A DNA stretch of 64,000 nt, from positions 3,358-67,357 of the forward strand of contig JAFGKT010000075.1 in assembly GCA_016928435.1 (NCBI GenBank), read 5' to 3'. The position numbers were made by a program, and so were the translations under genes. Origin of the DNA: Sedimentisphaerales bacterium. Lineage in GTDB: Bacteria; Planctomycetota; Phycisphaerae; Sedimentisphaerales; SM23-30. Positions 1,497 to 19,977 of the stretch are shown one piece after another. The notes under the pieces were generated by a model. That model did not search any database. It saw only the letters and a program-made list of their open reading frames with translations, and was not told where the DNA came from. How positions within the stretch are numbered: the stretch's first letter is position 1; every line of letters begins with the position of its first letter.

Positions 1497-2081
1497 TTAG
1501 TTGCCGGTCTTTTCATCCGTTTGATCTGCGGAAGCAGCTTCGGCATCTTTCGTTTCGGTTTGATCGGCTGAACTTTCAGCGGTGGTATCGGCAGCGTCAA
1601 TATTAGCATCAGCTTTCGGCTCAATGGACACCGGTGCATCCTCGGTAGTGAAGACGGTATTTTGAGGCTTGGCCTTTACTGTTTCTTCGACCAGCTGGAG
1701 CAATACCAATTGGCCATTATCGCCGACACGCCTTAACGGTAGATTAATGATACGTGTATATCCGCCGTTGCGTGAGGCAAAACGTGGGCCCACCTCTGAA
1801 AATAGCTTGCCGATCACCGTATTGACCTTCATGGGCTCACCATCTTGGATTGCACAAATATCGCGATCCTGCAAAAGGGAGATAGCCCTTCTCCGGGCAT
1901 GTAAGCTACCATCTTTGGCTAGAGTGACAAGTTTTTCAACGAAAGGCTTGACGAATTTAGCCTTTTCGCGGGTTGTCGAGATGGTTCCATGCTCGATCAC
2001 CGAAGCTGCCAGATTACGCCGCAAAGCGGTGCGGTGGGCACTAGTCCGGCTCAGGTGTCTTCCACGTACCTGGTGTCGCAT
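1497..2081 (-). CDS. rplQ: 50S ribosomal protein L17 with acidic C-terminal tail
   Basis: MRHQVRGRHLSRTSAHR, RNGGYTRI; follows rpoA. Confidence 0.97.
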   Translation of the reverse strand: MRHQVRGRHLSRTSAHRTALRRNLAASVIEHGTISTTREKAKFVKPFVEKLVTLAKDGSLHARRRAISLLQDRDICAIQDGEPMKVNTVIGKLFSEVGPRFASRNGGYTRIINLPLRRVGDNGQLVLLQLVEETVKAKPQNTVFTTEDAPVSIEPKADANIDAADTTAESSADQTETKDAEAASADQTDEKTGN

Positions 2082-2219: not shown

Positions 2220-3263
2220 TTATTCACCAATATCACTACTATCATCACCGGCGACATGCTGGAGTTCCATCGCGGGCAGATTCATACCCAACAACAAACC
2301 CATATCCGCCAATTTACGTTTTACTTCACGCAAGCTGGTTTTACCGAAGCTGCGTAGATTGAGCAGTTCACTTTCCGGCATCGACACCAATTGCCCGACG
2401 GTTTCGATCTTGGCCATTTCGAGACAATTATTAGCTCGAACAGACAGCTCAAGGTCGGCAATTGTGGTATTGAGCTTACGCCGCAATTCTTCATCTACGG
2501 CTTGCTCAACGGGCGCGCCAATTTCGGCAGCGGCAGGCTCAACCATTTCATCACTCATCTCAAAATACTGCACGAAAGGCGAAAGGTGTTTGCGTAAGAT
2601 CTTAGCTGATTCCACCAACGCCATTTCCGGACTGACGGTTCCATCGGTCCAGATTTCCATGATTAGTCGGTCGTAATTAATTTTCTGTCCCACGCGGGTC
2701 TCTTCGGTCTTATATCGCACACGGGTAACGGGCGAATAAAGAGCATCGACGGGAATAACGCCGACTTCCTGCTCGGAGGCTTTGTCATCATGTGTTGCGA
2801 TAATATACCCACGTCCCTTTTCGACGGTCATTTCCATCGAGAATTCGACGTTGTCGGTAAGGGTCGCGATAACACAATCCGGATTCATAATAGTGATGGT
2901 CGGATCGGCTTGAATATCGGCACCGGTTATTTGGCCGGCGGAGTTTTTCCGCACGGTCATTTTCTTGGGCTCATCACTATCGAGTTTTACCACAAGTGAT
3001 TTGATATTCAGAATAATATCGGTGACATCTTCGAGGACACCGGGCAGCGACATAAACTCATGGGGAGCATTCGCGATTTTAACCGAAGTAATGGCACTTC
3101 CTTCGAGCGAGGAAAGCAAAACCCTTCTTAGGCCATTACCCACTGTTATTCCGAAACCGCGTTCAAAAGGCTCAATGATCAGCCGACCATATTTATCGGT
3201 TGATACGGTTTTGTCCAGTTCAACTTTAGTGGGCAATTCAAGCCCGCGCCACCTAATTCGCAT
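2220..3263 (-). CDS. rpoA: RNA polymerase alpha subunit
   Basis: EPFERGFGITVGNGLRRVLLSS; alpha-CTD LELSVRANNCL...FGKTSLRE. Confidence 0.98.
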   Translation of the reverse strand: MRIRWRGLELPTKVELDKTVSTDKYGRLIIEPFERGFGITVGNGLRRVLLSSLEGSAITSVKIANAPHEFMSLPGVLEDVTDIILNIKSLVVKLDSDEPKKMTVRKNSAGQITGADIQADPTITIMNPDCVIATLTDNVEFSMEMTVEKGRGYIIATHDDKASEQEVGVIPVDALYSPVTRVRYKTEETRVGQKINYDRLIMEIWTDGTVSPEMALVESAKILRKHLSPFVQYFEMSDEMVEPAAAEIGAPVEQAVDEELRRKLNTTIADLELSVRANNCLEMAKIETVGQLVSMPESELLNLRSFGKTSLREVKRKLADMGLLLGMNLPAMELQHVAGDDSSDIGE

Positions 3264-3465
3264 TTGTTAGGCCTCCCTATTTCGGGTCAAGGTTGAGGAT
3301 ACTGTCAACCGCAGGACCAATCGGTCGGATCAAGCAAGTCGAGCAGGGCGTCTCAAATCAGTACCCGGCAGGTATTGCATCAAAACTAAAAAACAACTGT
3401 TGTCGTCAATTCCATCTCGGTCTCGCCTCAGTGGCAATTAATCACACGCAGGCAAAGACAAAGAT

Positions 3466-3852
3466 TTAGACTCTGCGGCGTTTTCCCGGGCGACAACCGT
3501 TGTGAGGCAAAGGAGTCACGTCTTCGATGGATGCGATTCTCAATCCCGCTCCCTGGAGCGATGTAATCGCAGACTCTCGTCCTCCGCCAGCCCCTTTGAC
3601 ACGGACTTCTACTTCGACCACGCCAAGTTTTTTGGCGGCATTGGCACATTTTTCCGCGGCACGTTGCGCGGCAAACGGCGTACTCTTACGTGATCCTTTG
3701 AAGCCGATGGTTCCGGCGGAGTCCCAACAAAGAGTTTCTCCGTTGGTATCGGTGATAGTTATGAGAGTATTATTGAAGGAAGCCTTAATATGGACAATAC
3801 CTTTGCCCACATTACGTCTGACCTTCTTTTTAACACCTTTCTTCTTCGCCAT
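3466..3852 (-). CDS. rpsK: 30S ribosomal protein S11
   Basis: [25 protein letters not shown]. Confidence 0.98.
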
Positions 3853-12732: not shown

Positions 12733-13425
12733 CTATTGCCTTCTGCCCCTGCCGCGATTAGGCTGTACAGGATTGGGTTCCGGTTCAAAACCAAACATAC
12801 CTCTGTATATCCACACTTTGATACCGATGGCACCATAAGTCGTAACCGAAACAGCCAAGCCATAATCAACATTGGCTTGCAGCGTCTGCAGAGGAATCGA
12901 GCCAAGAATCTGGGTTTCTCGACGAGCCAATTCAGCTCCGCCAAGTCTGCCACCACAAATAATCTTCACACCCAACGCGCCGGCAGCCATAGTATTTTCG
13001 CAATGCTGTTTCATCAAACGTCTAAACGCACCACGACGCTTAAGCTGCTCGGAGATAGACTCAGCGACAAGCTGGGCATCCAGATCAGGATGCTTCACTT
13101 CCATAACATTAACATTAACGCGACGATCGATAAGGTCTTCAAGTTCTTCTCGCAGACGGTCGATTTCGGCGCCTTTGGGGCCGATCACCAAACCAGGACG
13201 TGCGGTATGCAACGTTACTTTAACATCATCACGAGTTCGTTCGATTTCGGTCTTGGCAATCGCAGCATATGGCGGCTTACGATTGAGACGGTCATCTACA
13301 AACGCACGAATCTTCTGGTCTTCCACAAGAAACTCGCCGAATGCTGCCTTTGGGGCAAACCAGCGACTTTTCCAACCTAATGTAATGCCGGTTCTAAAAC
13401 CGATCGGTGATACCTTTTGGCCCAT
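12733..13425 (-). CDS. rpsC: 30S ribosomal protein S3
   Basis: MGQKVSPIGFR, RPGLVIG, GRLGGAELAR. Confidence 0.98.
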   Translation of the reverse strand: MGQKVSPIGFRTGITLGWKSRWFAPKAAFGEFLVEDQKIRAFVDDRLNRKPPYAAIAKTEIERTRDDVKVTLHTARPGLVIGPKGAEIDRLREELEDLIDRRVNVNVMEVKHPDLDAQLVAESISEQLKRRGAFRRLMKQHCENTMAAGALGVKIICGGRLGGAELARRETQILGSIPLQTLQANVDYGLAVSVTTYGAIGIKVWIYRGMFGFEPEPNPVQPNRGRGRRQ

Positions 13426-13464: not shown

Positions 13465-14013
13465 TTAGTCTTGATCGACGCTCACATGAATATGGCTAGC
13501 CAACCGGGTAAACGACACGGCACGGCCTCGATCTTTTGGACGCCAACGACGAGTACCCTGACGAATACCGCCTTCATCAACTCTAGCTTCGGAAACATAG
13601 AGGCGTTCAACATCAGCCTCTTGTTCATCAGCGTTAGCGATAGCGCTACGCAATACTTTATCTATCATAACCGCGGCTCGCTTGTTAGCGAACTTGAGTA
13701 CATCCAAGGCATCCTGTACGTTACGATCCCGAATGAGATCGGCAACTAAACGCACTTTGCGGGGCGCCATTGGAGCATAATAATGGGAAGCGCGCCAAAC
13801 GATTAAGTCTTGATGAGTCACGTTGAGGGCACGGGCTATACGGTCGATATCAGAGCGTTTGGGTTTAGGAGAGAGAAGTCCTCTTTCCCAATTGCCAATA
13901 GCGGTTTTCATATCGGCGGCGGAGCGGCCTCTTTCGGCGACTGCCTCAGCCAATTGGCCCACGGACATCCCGGCGGCTTCACGGCTTTTTTTCAATTTAC
14001 TTGCACTTAGCAT
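13465..14013 (-). CDS. rplV: 50S ribosomal protein L22 fused to an N-terminal XRE-like HTH domain
   Basis: Residues from ~72: PRKVRLVADLIR, KVLRSAIANA, RGRA...SHIHV (uL22). Residues 1-70: LKKSREAAGMSVGQLAEAV...IGNWERG...IARALNV (XRE pattern). Lies between rpsS and rpsC. Confidence 0.95.
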   Translation of the reverse strand: MLSASKLKKSREAAGMSVGQLAEAVAERGRSAADMKTAIGNWERGLLSPKPKRSDIDRIARALNVTHQDLIVWRASHYYAPMAPRKVRLVADLIRDRNVQDALDVLKFANKRAAVMIDKVLRSAIANADEQEADVERLYVSEARVDEGGIRQGTRRWRPKDRGRAVSFTRLASHIHVSVDQD

Positions 14014-14066
14014 AATACTCGTATCCTACAAATCAGACAGCTCAATCGCTTAATCTGCTATCAAGC

Positions 14067-14336
14067 TTATTTCTTCTTAGAACCAGCGTGACCTCGGAAA
14101 GTTCGCGTTGGAGAAAACTCGCCCAGTTTATGGCCGACCATTTCTTCAGTGACATAGACTTTGTTGAAGATTTTGCCGTTATGCACCATAAACGTAAAGC
14201 CGACAAATTCCGGAACGATAGTGCAACGACGAGCCCAGGTTTTCATAGGCTCATGGCCGCCGGATTCCTGTTGCTTCACGACCTTACGAAACAATTTCTC
14301 GTCAACGAAAGGTCCTTTCTTAAGCGATCGACCCAT
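14067..14336 (-). CDS. rpsS: 30S ribosomal protein S19
   Basis: [23 protein letters not shown]. Confidence 0.98.
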
Positions 14337-17165: not shown

Positions 17166-17474
17166 TCAAACACGTATTTTCACGAAAACACCGGCCGGGA
17201 CCACCAAGCGATTAAGCGCTTCGACGGTGCGCGGGTTGGCTTCGTAAATATCGATCAGCCGTTTATGCGTGCGCATTTCGAACTGCTCGCGAGACTTCTT
17301 GTCAATGTGCGGCGAGCGCAACACAGTATAGCGCTCAACACGAGTAGGCAGAGGGATTGGGCCACTAACTCTGGCGTTAGTACGACGCGCCTGCTCCACA
17401 ATCTCTTTGGCCGAGGCGTCCAGAGACCCGTGGTCATAGGCTTCCATTCTGATACGGATACGTTCAGCGTCCAC
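17166..17474 (-). CDS. rpsJ: 30S ribosomal protein S10 (NusE)
   Basis: [34 protein letters not shown]; GTG start after GGAG. Confidence 0.98.
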
Positions 17475-17598
17475 GCAACTACTCCCAAGATTTTTTTCAA
17501 GCCTAAGTGCCAGGTAGCCCAAAATCGAGCAAAACAGCCAACCCAACGGCGATATCAGTACTAAACGTCAGTAATTAGACGATTTATAAAGACCCGTA

Positions 17599-17626
17599 AG
17601 TTTAACAGCTAAACCTACGGCGTCAA
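17599..17626 (-). promoter_or_regulatory. Putative sigma70 promoter of the S10 operon
   Basis: TTGACG-16 nt-TAAACT with extended TG. Confidence 0.5.
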
Positions 17627-17898
17627 CCAAAAAAAGCGATAAAAAGCAGTCCAAAATGATCTTCACGGGCTTTTTTGAGATTCAAGCCTGCCCAATGTTG
17701 TTACCGAGGCCTTGAAATAGACCTGGTAATTATCCGAGATCTAGCGGCGAGGTGGCCGATTTAGGGCCTGCCGCCACGACTGTCGGTCCATCCTTGGACT
17801 GTAAATAGAGAAGAAATCAACTTGCACTATCGCAGTAACATCCTGTTTCTGCTCGCTTTGGTCGAAGAGTAAGAATTTAGCAGAGGATTAAAAATCTG

Positions 17899-19977
17899 TC
17901 AATAGGCAGTTTCTAAAACTTTCTGTAAAACTTGTTCCGGCATGGGAGCATAATCATACGGCTCCATGGTATAGCTGCCCCGTCCCTGGGTCGAGCTTCT
18001 CAGATCGGAGGCATATCCGAACATTTCAGCCAGGGGTACGGTGGCGTCGATGACTCTCACCGGACCACGTTGGGCGGTCTTGGTTATAATGGCCCGTTTG
18101 CGGGAGAGATCACCCTGGACAACACCGTAAAACTGTTCTGGCGTAAGGACTTGCAGCTTCATGATAGGCTCGAGCAGAGTTGGGCCCGCCTTTTGGGAAG
18201 CATCTTGAAAGGCTATGGAACCGGCCTGTTGGAAGGCGATTTCCGAGGAATCGACAGGGTGAAAAGAGCCGTCGATGATAGCGATTTTTAGATCTGTTAC
18301 GGGGTAGCCTGCCAGGGAACCGCTGGTAGCGGCATCACGAATACCAGTGATGGCGGAAGGAATAAATTCTTTTGGAATTACTCCCCCTACTGTCTGATCT
18401 TCGACAATAATTGCTTCTTCATCGGGTCCGGGCCTATGATGCTCGACCTTAATCACCACATGTCCGTATTGGCCTCGCCCGCCGGTCTGATGGATAAATT
18501 TGCCCTCGCCTTGAGCGGATTTGGTGAGCGTCTCCTTATAAGCCACCCTTGGACGTCCGATAAGCACATCGACTTTCATATCTCGGGTTATCTTATGTTG
18601 GAGGATTTCGAGGTGCAGCTCACCCATACCGCTGATGATGGTTTGGCCGGTAGCTTCGTTATACTTGGCCCTAAAAGTGGGATCTTCGCGTTTGAGGACA
18701 TCCAGTGCTTCAGCGAGTTTGGTCCGTTCACCGGCGGTCCTAGGCTCAATCGACAAACTCATGACCGGCTCGGGGAACTCAATAGCGTCGAGAACCACCG
18801 GTTTTTTGGGTAAACTGAGTGTGTCGCCGGTAAGTATCTGCTTTAGTCCTACCAAAGCGACAATATCCCCAGCCTGGGCTTGTTCACGAATAGTACGTGA
18901 CGCAGCGTGCATCTGGAATATTTTCTGGACGTTTTCTTTGCGATCCTGAGTGGCATTTAGAACACGCGACCCGGCTTTTAGGGTACCGGAATAGATACGC
19001 ACAAAGGTAAGATCACCATGTTGATCGGAGGCGATTTTGAAAGCGTAAGCTACCAACGGAGCGCCGGGGTCGCAGGGACAATCGATCTTATGTTGGGTTT
19101 GGCCGGGCGCGTGCCCTTGAACTATAGGGCGATCAAGCGGACTGGGCAGGTAATTCACTATCGCGTCCAAGAGCTTACGGGATCCAATAGACCGCAAAGC
19201 GGCACCACAGAACACAGGATGCACTTGGCCGGCCAATGTGCCTTTACGCAGACTCTGGATGATTTCATCTTTGGTGAGAGGCTGATCCTCAAGATACTTC
19301 TCCATGAGCGCATCGTCGAATTCAGCGGCTTTTTCGAGAATATCATGATGGGCTAACTCAGCGGCATCCTGCAGATCAGCGGGAATTTCCTGTTCGGTCA
19401 TTACCGCGGCGACTTTATCTTGCTCAAAATAACAGGCTTTCATGTCGAGCAGATCGACAAAACCTTGGAAGTCTTCCTGTTGACCGATGGGAATCTGCAT
19501 CTTGAGAGGCTTGGCGAGCAGTTTTTCACGTAAGCTTTGCACAGCCATGTCAAAATCGGCGCCTATTTTGTCCATCTTATTGATGAAACAAATACAAGGC
19601 ACACCATATTTTTGCGCTTGATGCCAAACGGTCTCAGATTGAGCCTGTACGCCTTCGCTGGCATCAAACACAGCAACGGCGCCATCCAGTACCCGCAGCG
19701 ATCGTTCGACTTCAACGGTGAAATCGACATGGCCGGGGGTATCGATAAGATTAATGGTGTGTTTTTTCCAAGGGCAGGTGGTAGCAGCGGACGTGATGGT
19801 AATGCCGCGTTCCTGCTCCTCGGCAAGGTAGTCCATAACCGCGGTGCCGTCGTGGACTTCGCCGATTTTGTGGGTTCGGCCCGTGAAATAGAGAATTCGC
19901 TCGGTGACGGTGGTCTTGCCGGCATCAATATGGGCCATGATACCAATGTTACGGATTTTCGATAGTTCCGATGCCAT
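17899..19977 (-). CDS. fusA: Elongation factor G
   Basis: AHIDAGKTT, RGITI, DTPGHVDF, NKMD, GMGELHL. Confidence 0.97.
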   Translation of the reverse strand: MASELSKIRNIGIMAHIDAGKTTVTERILYFTGRTHKIGEVHDGTAVMDYLAEEQERGITITSAATTCPWKKHTINLIDTPGHVDFTVEVERSLRVLDGAVAVFDASEGVQAQSETVWHQAQKYGVPCICFINKMDKIGADFDMAVQSLREKLLAKPLKMQIPIGQQEDFQGFVDLLDMKACYFEQDKVAAVMTEQEIPADLQDAAELAHHDILEKAAEFDDALMEKYLEDQPLTKDEIIQSLRKGTLAGQVHPVFCGAALRSIGSRKLLDAIVNYLPSPLDRPIVQGHAPGQTQHKIDCPCDPGAPLVAYAFKIASDQHGDLTFVRIYSGTLKAGSRVLNATQDRKENVQKIFQMHAASRTIREQAQAGDIVALVGLKQILTGDTLSLPKKPVVLDAIEFPEPVMSLSIEPRTAGERTKLAEALDVLKREDPTFRAKYNEATGQTIISGMGELHLEILQHKITRDMKVDVLIGRPRVAYKETLTKSAQGEGKFIHQTGGRGQYGHVVIKVEHHRPGPDEEAIIVEDQTVGGVIPKEFIPSAITGIRDAATSGSLAGYPVTDLKIAIIDGSFHPVDSSEIAFQQAGSIAFQDASQKAGPTLLEPIMKLQVLTPEQFYGVVQGDLSRKRAIITKTAQRGPVRVIDATVPLAEMFGYASDLRSSTQGRGSYTMEPYDYAPMPEQVLQKVLETAY

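Follow-up and report, generated by a model that had tools for sequence, protein, structure and literature searches.

uL22 is a universal ribosomal protein that shapes the constriction of the exit tunnel, and its surface docks enzymes that process the nascent chain. According to PMC5071890 the tunnel exit is ringed by uL22, uL23, uL24 and uL29, and bioRxiv 10.1101/2022.04.20.488877 describes the docking groove of PDF as formed by uL22, bL32 and rRNA. Several lineages carry added terminal sequence on uL22 (the Mycoplasma PRK12279 proteins, D. radiodurans, organelles); for N-terminal additions this is seen in solved ribosomes from the chain numbering, which starts at 23 in D. radiodurans, at 61 in the Chlamydomonas chlororibosome, at 105 in the plant mitoribosome and at 226 in the Chlamydomonas mitoribosome. 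A helix-turn-helix (HTH) of the Cro/C1 type is also found on the ribosome: in the account of PMC7486125, the HTH of EDF1/Mbf1 is located between h16 and h33 of 18S rRNA and contacts these rRNA helices, and the protein is reported there as absent from bacteria. In the type V-K CAST system the N-terminal HTH of TniQ binds TnsC and so serves a protein-protein contact, as presented in PMC9798831.

The locus described here brings such a fold into uL22 itself. The window, a stretch of 64,000 nucleotides from a Sedimentisphaerales bacterium, holds rplV on the minus strand at 13465-14013 (ATG start, 182 codons plus stop; assigned from the ORF list, Pfam and NCBIfam), and the gene encodes one polypeptide in which an XRE/Cro-C1-fold domain passes directly, with no intervening linker, into the first strand of a complete uL22. 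The upstream neighbor is rpsS (uS19; 14067-14336, minus strand) and the downstream neighbor is rpsC (uS3; 12733-13425, minus strand), both also used as tree markers. The stop of rpsS and the ATG of rplV are separated by 53 nt, and a Shine-Dalgarno-like AGGA (14024-14027, minus strand) is present 10 nt upstream of the ATG. The fusion thus keeps what is canonical for uL22, namely the rpsS-rpsC operon slot, the single copy and a superposable fold, and differs from it by 70-72 extra N-terminal residues that make up a globular domain.

Completeness of the uL22 part is established by sequence families and by superimposition alike. Ribosomal_L22 (PF00237, Pfam) matches residues 75-179 with 98.6 bits (cut-off 28) over model positions 1-103 of 104, and the rplV_bact equivalog (TIGR01044, NCBIfam) gives 96.6 bits (cut-off 73.65) over positions 3-103 of 103. 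The Mycoplasma model for an "L22/unknown domain fusion" (NF008917, PRK12279) reaches 51.9 bits against a cut-off of 526 and aligns through its L22 part only (positions 12-109 of 311), so the fusion does not belong to that family. In the fold search VIA, residues 71-182 of the AlphaFold2 model align to residues 1-110 of solved bacterial uL22 chains (8buu_S and many others; rmsd 1.1 Å over 109 of 110 residues, Z 19.1), and the alpha/beta globular domain and the long beta-hairpin are both present in the model. Since the superposition spans chain residues 1-110, the uL22 part is complete and residues 1-70/72 are the additional part. W73 corresponds to residue 3 of the canonical Phycisphaerae uL22 ("MAW.A.HR.AR"). 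From the VIA alignment and the canonical N-termini of 20 non-fusion loci we place the uL22 core, residues 73-182 plus stop, at 13465-13797 (minus strand) and the N-domain, residues 1-72, at 13798-14013 (minus strand).

The N-domain is a five-helix domain of the XRE/Cro-C1 type (helices 4-14, 18-25, 32-43, 53-63 and 67-69), on which HTH_3, AlphaFold2, Foldseek and VIA agree. In Pfam, HTH_3 (PF01381) passes marginally with 25.3 bits against a cut-off of 23, HTH_31 stays just below (26.0 bits, cut-off 27) and HTH_19 is below as well (13.5 bits, cut-off 30.2). AlphaFold2 predicts the N-domain with pLDDT 94.2 and the full-length protein with pLDDT 92.9 and pTM 0.82, the values across the junction being 93-96. 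Foldseek gives TM 0.70-0.76 to C.BclI, P22 c2 and SinR. When VIA compares the domain with 48,161 chains, the best 50 have Z 10.8-7.3, and all of these with an identifying title are XRE/lambda-repressor-like; by score, the closest structural neighbors are DNA-binding repressors, with which the five-helix fold is shared (C.Csp231I, C.AhdI, SinR and P22 c2; Z 10.8-9.8, rmsd 1.2-2.2 Å over 57-66 residues). The fold also serves roles other than DNA binding, as illustrated by neighbors such as the enzyme domains of HppE, HEPD and MPnS and a chain of the T. gondii mitoribosome LSU. No solved uL22 chain among the best 50 listed covers the N-domain convincingly; those whose alignment begins at model residue 32 or 33 superpose with an rmsd of 2.9-4.1 Å. 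A preliminary description, made from the sequence, had recognized an in-frame XRE-type HTH and a complete uL22 in the 182-aa ORF and had proposed an HMM scan and a structure prediction. In agreement with it, Pfam places HTH_3 and Ribosomal_L22 both above cut-off, the N-domain is predicted to fold as an XRE/Cro-type HTH, and the fold searches concur on the fusion.

Within this common fold, the N-domain departs from the regulators in the region that in a repressor would read DNA. In the AlphaFold2 model the connection of helices 2 and 3 has 6 residues and helix 3 has 12, as compared with about 3 and about 9 in 434 Cro, and relative to CapH the helix 2-3 region is about 8 residues longer in the alignment. 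The segment from helix 2 to the core of helix 3 varies among orthologues (13 residues in 34 of the 45, 19-21 in eight, 11 in two and 7 in one), and helix 3 begins with turns that are variable in sequence and often acidic. A tight helix-turn-helix with a recognition helix conserved among orthologues is therefore not what the domain presents. It also has no separate oligomerization or sensor domain, being fused instead to a ribosomal protein. A prediction of an N-domain homodimer, with a score of 0.08 (mark 0.42), speaks neither for nor against a dimer. What is constant lies elsewhere: N41-W42 (codons at 13888-13893, minus strand; from the alignments) are the sole invariant N-domain residues in all 45 orthologues of both carrier lineages, the 3-4 loop has 10 residues in 44 of them, and basic residues are conserved at K6, K8, K/R40, K/R44 and K48. 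The net charge of the domain has a median of +4 and ranges from -4 to +8.

The best match among PDB sequences that keep the long helix 2-3 segment ungapped is the N-terminal HTH of TniQ (7oxd, 7n6i). The profile match (positions 22-71, E 4e-4) is marginal, though, and Pfam finds no TniQ family at E <= 1; zinc fingers and a transposon context are likewise lacking from the uL22 fusion. The HTH of EDF-1 (1x57) is a structural neighbor with Z 7.3. EDF1/Mbf1 is, however, a separate recruited factor at the mRNA entry side of the 40S subunit, whereas the uL22 HTH belongs covalently to a protein of the 50S subunit, on the exit side; the MBF1 N-domain and zinc ribbon are absent from the fusion, for which Pfam gives only HTH families and L22.

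That the domain is translated as part of uL22 follows from the start codons and from selection. All 40 Sedimentisphaerales loci have their ATG at the aligned position, and nearly all of them show, as judged by eye, a GGA- or AGG-containing motif about 8-15 nt upstream; in the second carrier lineage, the Phycisphaerae family f19, the start is GTG preceded by GGAG or AGGA (5/5). An annotation artefact, in which uL22 would start internally and the upstream 70 codons would be untranslated or a separate product, is hardly credible. It would account for the NCBI-derived members of the same 90% clusters that are shorter (148, 160, 122 and 138 aa), some pipelines having picked internal starts, and the window does offer GTG for V65 (13819-13821, minus strand) and ATG for M82 (13768-13770, minus strand, in the region of the first uL22 strand) in frame. 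But neither is supported as a start by the codon survey of the 45 orthologues, and no SD-like 4-mer precedes either of them in the window. A start-type codon occurs at the V65 position in 12 of the 45, with an SD-like motif upstream in two, and at the M82 position in 18, with such a motif in one; no position within 60-84 exceeds 18 of the 45, so that an internal start is conserved nowhere, and 26 of the 45 lack ATG, GTG or TTG at positions 66-76 altogether. A start at M82 would moreover remove the stretch aligned with residues 1-11 of solved uL22. The preliminary description had noted no in-frame ATG or GTG where uL22 usually starts. This holds for the canonical start position itself, where residues 71-72 are encoded by ATC and GTT, but not for its surroundings, as GTG for V65 sits seven codons upstream and ATG for M82 is close by.

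The upstream codons, in turn, carry the marks of a protein. No stop codon separates the N-domain from uL22 in any of the 45 orthologues, the frame opens just 0-28 codons upstream of the conserved ATG with its SD-like motif, and the N-domain is predicted to fold with confidence. Of 190 f1 pairs 24 were usable; their median dN/dS is 0.29 in the N-domain against 0.08 in the uL22 core, and in the four least-saturated pairs the N-domain value is 0.03-0.23. The pace of evolution is 3-4 times faster in the N-domain than in the core, yet the domain stays folded, and it is under purifying selection across Sedimentisphaerales and the second Phycisphaerae family.

All sampled Sedimentisphaerales genomes with an rplV have the fusion (16/16 in the class sample of 121 genomes), as have six of six f19 genomes, and it is not found in 17 other Phycisphaerae families (98 genomes with a match); in these fusion-free families all 25 loci that were read have the canonical uL22 start. 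Among the matches listed for the remaining phylum sample the fusion is not found. Matches that reach the N-domain region with stops, or that start at residues 42-49, were read as candidates for a third lineage or for a split, unfused precursor, and the 11 loci proved to be rpsS in the same frame or short unrelated N-extensions. Of what the preliminary description had supposed, a trait of the whole class is thus contradicted by this distribution, while conservation in relatives upholds its suggestion that the fusion is not unique to this genome, and shows that it is no local artefact. The two carrier lineages are not sisters in a three-protein tree. Recent transfer of the whole gene between them was considered and is unsupported, because the uL22 core of f19 shares 50.9% identity with the cores of Sedimentisphaerales but 61-62% with those of the non-fusion families f11, f15 and f26. 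The Sedimentisphaerales core has features of its own, namely a proline in place of arginine at the position equivalent to E. coli R11 and a three-residue insertion, R151-Q152-G153 (13555-13563, minus strand), in the uL22 beta-hairpin (tunnel loop), which is Sedimentisphaerales-specific (40/40, against 0/18 non-fusion and 0/5 f19 rows).

The window's genome gives a single uL22 match, as does each of the 39 other relatives with a match, and no N-domain paralogue is found in the window's genome (next match E 0.35). Because a second uL22 is absent, every 50S subunit of these bacteria very probably carries the N-domain. For its role, we put about even confidence in a permanent ribosomal surface module beside the tunnel exit that contacts rRNA or a factor and does not read a DNA operator. 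Fixed rigidly to the solvent face of uL22's globular domain, the module would occupy the uL22/bL32/bL17 side of the exit-tunnel rim. The basic face formed by K6, K8, K/R40, N41, K/R44 and K48, located where helix 3 ends and in the 3-4 loop of fixed length, might rest on the 23S rRNA backbone, or offer an extra docking surface for a nascent-chain factor, or both. The HTH fold would then be employed as by EDF1/Mbf1 on 18S rRNA or by TniQ on TnsC, without reading a DNA operator. Rigid packing, and the inward or outward facing of the basic patch, are proposed solely from pTM, pLDDT and the absence of a linker. Counting against such a module are the failure to find a co-varying partner in the comparisons described below, the rank of DNA-binding repressors as its best-scoring structural neighbors, the span of net charge, which is loose for an obligate rRNA contact, and a basic surface that suits DNA as well as it suits RNA.

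The same surface could instead make the HTH a working nucleic-acid-binding head, by which uL22 would tether the ribosome to DNA or RNA or, as free protein, would act as a feedback repressor; we regard this as unlikely. As a tether, the exposed HTH of the assembled ribosome would bind DNA (nucleoid association) or mRNA or other RNA without sequence specificity, which we hold to be just as unlikely. The median net charge, the conserved basic K6, K40, K44 and K48 and the backbone contacts that the XRE fold serves are compatible with it, as is the solvent exposure to be expected from uL22 N-terminal extensions in solved ribosomes, but some orthologues go down to a net charge of -4, and the tunnel-exit face of the ribosome is its membrane- and factor-facing side, not the mRNA side. 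The N-domain might otherwise act in cis before or during 50S assembly, in uL22 solubility or early binding, and be passive later. According to PMC4937340 uL22 joins assembly early and has a long basic hairpin, and a domain that evolves 3-4 times faster than the core while keeping its fold would suit this role; 17 other Phycisphaerae families nevertheless do without it, and a specific contact is suggested because two distant lineages share the N41-W42 pair without exception and keep a fixed loop length. An assembly or solubility aid is accordingly improbable in our judgement.

The repressor alternative, in which the HTH of free uL22 would bind an operator in the S10/str region or elsewhere and repress transcription when ribosomal proteins are in excess, is quite unlikely. 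In fold and HMM family the domain matches DNA-binding repressors, feedback by an operon's own product is common for ribosomal proteins (uL4 acts on the E. coli S10 leader as a feedback regulator), and Sedimentisphaerales have a conserved promoter and a long structured leader between fusA and rpsJ. Yet orthologues of one family differ in both the length (7-21 residues) and the sequence of the recognition-helix region, and no linker separates the domain from a protein that spends most of its time buried in rRNA. The search for inverted repeats (at least 10 nt, seed 6, spacing up to 40) finds none in the fusA-rpsJ and rpsS-rplV spacers (17400-17950 and 13950-14120), and the only widely shared "palindrome" upstream of rpsJ (TCTAAAA..TTTTAGA, 29 relatives), tried as an operator, is fusA coding sequence. 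The leader motif of Sedimentisphaerales is not seen upstream of rpsJ in two fusion-bearing f19 genomes. With a "recognition" segment of 7-21 residues and no palindromic operator found, a sequence-specific repressor role is unlikely. Of the functional ideas first put forward (autoregulator, nucleoid tether, surface appendage), none is demonstrated; the evidence leans towards the appendage and away from the sequence-specific autoregulator.

The fusA-rpsJ leader itself yields no consensus structure with RNAalifold on MAFFT alignments and no Rfam match at E <= 1; covarying stems are seen by eye only. CsrA was considered for its GGA-loop hairpins and rejected, as the window's genome (85% complete) has no CsrA family match, and the motif occurs in the window no more often than chance predicts.

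An order-wide repressor-type domain on uL22 means that every ribosome of these bacteria departs from the textbook exit site. The fusion is a natural experiment in remodelling of the exit platform, and a rare bacterial case of a transcription-factor fold within a core ribosomal protein. Were the HTH a nucleic-acid-binding head after all, it would provide a built-in link of ribosome and nucleoid or of transcription and translation, or would give a universal ribosomal protein a second function as a classical transcription factor; in that case, the disjunct occurrence of homologous N-domains in two non-sister lineages would be explained by a selectable regulatory module that was transferred or repeatedly retained. 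In keeping with the preliminary description, abstract-level literature searches and a term search within PMC7203096 returned no description of an HTH-uL22 fusion or its function. In databases the fusion is partly hidden, because annotation pipelines disagree on the start codon and versions of 122-160 aa stand in the same clusters. Cultured Limihaloglobus sulfuriphilus encodes the same 182-aa protein, AQQ72051.1, annotated merely as "50S ribosomal protein L22", so the fusion is directly testable there.

The surroundings of the N-domain do not co-vary with the fusion in the comparisons made. The C-terminal tail of PDF has 30-34 residues in five fusion genomes and 28-36 in five non-fusion genomes, the acidic tail of bL17 varies independently of the fusion, and bL32 of the window's genome is present at ordinary size (open frame of 61 aa), likewise without co-variation. 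In an alignment of 23S rRNA that includes E. coli for numbering, six fusion genomes (four Sedimentisphaerales, two f19) and three non-fusion genomes are not told apart by any indel of at least 5 nt. The same alignment shows an insert of 9 nt near E. coli position 1556 in four of four Sedimentisphaerales and in neither of the two f19 genomes.

The rplV gene of the window (13465..14013, minus strand; 182 aa from an ATG start in the ORF list) lies between rpsS and rpsC inside an ordinary S10-spc-alpha ribosomal cluster. Its product belongs to the uL22 family, and the N-domain of that product (residues 1-72) to the XRE fold. With Pfam, Ribosomal_L22 covers residues 75-179 of the window protein at 98.6 bits, HTH_3 exceeds its cut-off of 23 over the N-terminal part, scoring 25.3 bits, and HTH_31 falls slightly below its own cut-off over the same part; NCBIfam assigns the C-terminal part to the rplV equivalog. 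The AlphaFold2 model of the full-length fusion, computed from an alignment of 45 orthologues, has a pLDDT of 92.9 and a pTM of 0.82. Residues 1-110 of solved bacterial uL22 chains superpose on residues 71-182 of this model at 1.1 Å, so the uL22 part is complete and the N-domain is joined to it directly, with no linker. The canonical Phycisphaerae uL22 begins with 'M(A)W.A.HR.AR', and its methionine aligns exactly with residue 71/72 of the fusion. The Mycoplasma L22 fusion family was ruled out (51.9 bits versus a cut-off of 526), and identification of the protein as MBF1 or as TniQ was rejected as well. No description of an HTH-uL22 fusion was found in the literature searched. Lineage-specific accretion of domains by ribosomal proteins is a known phenomenon, of which this fusion is a case; what sets it apart is the nature of the addition, a globular transcription-factor fold, and its place on a universal exit-site protein.

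From open frames, conserved starts, substitution rates, the lack of a conserved internal start and the single copy of each part, we conclude that these organisms have the fusion protein as their uL22. The comparison covers 45 extracted loci: the window itself, 19 genomes from its own family, 20 from seven other families of Sedimentisphaerales, and 5 from f19, a second carrier family of Phycisphaerae outside this order. The reading frame is open across both parts in all 45. In the 40 Sedimentisphaerales loci the ATG stands at the identical aligned position, 0-28 codons past the upstream stop, and nearly all have a GGA/AGG-containing motif about 8-15 nt before it (judged by eye, uncounted); all five f19 genes use GTG as the start codon, with GGAG or AGGA ahead of it. 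Within the window's family, the N-domain has a median dN/dS (Nei-Gojobori) of 0.29 and the core one of 0.08, from the 24 usable pairs of 190, the remainder being saturated; in the four pairs with the least saturation the values are 0.03-0.23 versus 0.01-0.07. Inside the window gene, GTG at codon 65 and ATG at codon 82 are in frame, with no SD-like word upstream of either. Positions 66-76 are devoid of start-type codons in 26 of the 45 orthologues, and across positions 60-84 such a codon occurs in at most 18 of the 45 at any one position. Each matching genome of the relatives sample has one uL22 match, and no second copy of the N-domain was found in the window's own genome. Databases name the protein plain L22, with inconsistent start codons. 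In the 90%-identity clusters of the window protein and of its relatives, members deposited via NCBI measure 148, 160, 122 and 138 aa, versus 181-184 aa elsewhere; annotation pipelines often choose internal starts, which conceals the N-domain.

The relatives sample gave a match in 40 of 41 genomes, all without stops, and the sole exception is a genome 70% complete. The match begins at query residue 1-2 in 38 of these; direct reading of the other two (G036 and G037) revealed a complete N-domain. The annotated L22 of Limihaloglobus sulfuriphilus is one such orthologue. In the class sample (121 genomes, 21 families), full-length matches are confined to Sedimentisphaerales (16/16) and f19 (6/6), whose proteins NCBI labels 'Phycisphaerales bacterium'. 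The 98 matching genomes of the remaining 17 families match from residue 45 on, or only across stop codons, and canonical uL22 was present in all 25 loci read from them. Among the matches listed for the phylum sample (201 genomes), only the window's family and f19 carry the fusion; six suspicious rows were read and all are canonical uL22. These genome sets are samples, and for other families the fusion was not found in those searched. A profile search of 1.84 billion representatives returned 300 matches at E <= 1e-3. With a Sedimentisphaerales-only profile, 55 sequences score above the best generic XRE protein (45.8 bits). An L22 part is recognizable in 24 of them; the others are pieces of 41-159 aa, several visibly continuing into the first uL22 strand. 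All 55 are of the 'ML..' fusion type or the f19 type 'MR..NW(L/M)xGR', so the two N-domain types are mutual closest relatives. Other uL22 extensions occur in the samples: an arginine-rich N-extension of about 25 residues, unrelated to HTH, in two loci of the same phylum (L159 and L160, family f100; '...KRRKQQRLERRQAELGRRFRASHRW...'), and C-terminal tails of about 20-45 residues in two loci of family f12 (L175 and L176).

A tree of uS19, the uL22 core and uS3 (423 columns, 40 rows) places the Sedimentisphaerales in one group (SH-aLRT 95) and f19 with the non-fusion families f26, f15 and f21 (SH-aLRT 100). Constraining all carriers together is worse by 87 log-likelihood units (p-AU 2e-5), in a quick search on three short proteins with the group defined after an earlier tree had been viewed. 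The f19 core is 61-62% identical to non-fusion families versus 51% to Sedimentisphaerales. Tree and identities together leave two readings, transfer of the 5' domain or an ancient gain followed by several losses. A recent whole-gene transfer between carriers finds no support, as the f19 core is closer to non-fusion families and the carriers stand apart on the tree.

Folded alone, the N-domain reaches a pLDDT of 94.2; four helices (4-14, 18-25, 32-43 and 53-63) precede a short fifth turn. Foldseek matched C.BclI, P22 c2, C.AhdI, SinR and C.Csp231I (TM 0.70-0.76, rmsd ~2 Å), with E-values that are modest (best 8.6e-3) because the domain is small. An unbiased VIA-align comparison with 48,161 chains gave Z of 10.8-7.3 for the best 50 rows, and every one of these whose title identifies the protein has an XRE/Cro-type fold. 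They include copies embedded in enzymes (HppE, HEPD, MPnS), the HTH of human EDF-1, and two ribosome chains, 9g6k_Lj of the T. gondii mitoribosome LSU and 9p73_CH of the in situ human 80S, which we take to be EDF1. The profile of 45 N-domains matched PDB sequences weakly (CapH, 8e-5; type V-K TniQ, ~4e-4). Compared with a classical HTH, the N-domain differs at one place, where both the connection between helices 2 and 3 and the start of helix 3 are longer. The length of this stretch is 13 residues in most orthologues (34 of 45), 19-21 in eight, 11 in two and seven in one, while the loop after helix 3 is a constant 10 residues in 44. The tight turn and conserved recognition helix of XRE proteins are thus absent. 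Only N41 and W42 are invariant; L2, L21, A22, P49 and A60 nearly so. Basic residues are retained at positions 6, 40, 44 and 48, and the net charge has a median of +4 (range -4 to +8).

The globular part of uL22 sits at the tunnel-exit rim, as PMC5071890 describes, and the peptide deformylase (PDF) docking groove is formed by uL22, bL32 and rRNA (bioRxiv 2022.04.20.488877); solved ribosomes include uL22 chains with N-terminal additions. Because of these three points, we read the N-domain as a permanent surface module at the rim, a mechanism to which we give roughly an even chance. The conserved basic end of helix 3 and the fixed loop would suit contact with the rRNA backbone, in the manner of the EDF1/Mbf1 HTH on 18S rRNA (PMC7486125), and would equally suit protein contact, in the manner of TniQ on TnsC (PMC9798831). 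The conserved Arg that precedes 'TSH' in the last uL22 strand (window residue 171; 13498-13500, minus strand) occurs in 16 of 18 non-fusion rows. Both carrier lineages have lost it, with L, E or Q at this position in Sedimentisphaerales and Q in four of five f19 rows, a hint that would be consistent with an altered environment there. No partner co-varying with the fusion was seen among 23S indels, the PDF C-terminal helix, bL17 tails and bL32.

A tether to DNA or RNA through the N-domain is unlikely, and the fusion acting as a regulator of its own expression is less likely again. A conserved operator-reading head would fit the fold, but the evidence speaks against it: the 'recognition' segment is variable among orthologues, inverted repeats are absent from neighbouring spacers, and 29 relatives share no non-coding palindrome upstream of rpsJ. 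An aid to assembly ranks below both of these, and an artefact is highly improbable.

Upstream of rpsJ (17480-17905, minus strand; loci L179-L208 compared), a promoter-like TTGACA-N17-TAnAAT overlaps the fusA stop codon and is separated from rpsJ by a leader of about 380 nt; a second promoter-like site lies near 17600-17630. The leader begins with a conserved 'AAGCGAGC' and a hairpin with GGAT in its loop, the stem covarying by eye, followed by 'GCGTTAGTGTAAGTTG' and a second hairpin, CCCA-nGGA-TGGG. Its GCGAGC anchor is present in 28 of 30 Sedimentisphaerales loci, and no copy of the motif was seen ahead of rpsJ in two f19 and three non-fusion genomes. The fusA-rpsJ leader has no Rfam match at E <= 1, RNAalifold on MAFFT alignments gave no consensus structure, and no CsrA was found in the window's genome. 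Judged from sequence, an unclassified S10-operon leader and a small RNA are both candidates for its identity.

A 3-residue insertion (R-x-G) together with P149G in the uL22 beta-hairpin of the exit-tunnel constriction (13555-13563, minus strand) is present in 40/40 Sedimentisphaerales versus 0/18 non-fusion and 0/5 f19 rows. Insertions at this hairpin loop alter macrolide sensitivity in other bacteria. The equivalent of E. coli R11 (residue 81; 13771-13773, minus strand) is Pro in all 40 Sedimentisphaerales. The bL17 of the window (1497-2081, minus strand; 194 aa) has its L17 domain at 21-131, followed by a D-, E-, A- and T-rich tail of some 55 residues; tail length across the class varies independently of the uL22 fusion. 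In families f11, f15, f19, f20 and f23-f26, the bL17 match is split in two, suggestive of inserted sequence near residue 75-85. The gap between rpsK (3466..3852) and rpoA (2220..3263) is only about 200 nt (3263-3466) and lacks rpsD, which must therefore lie elsewhere. The 23S gene of one Sedimentisphaerales genome (L127, G031) measures 3170 nt versus 2733-2923 nt in the other eight compared; some 290 nt are inserted near E. coli position 1868-1876, perhaps as an intervening sequence or an intron.
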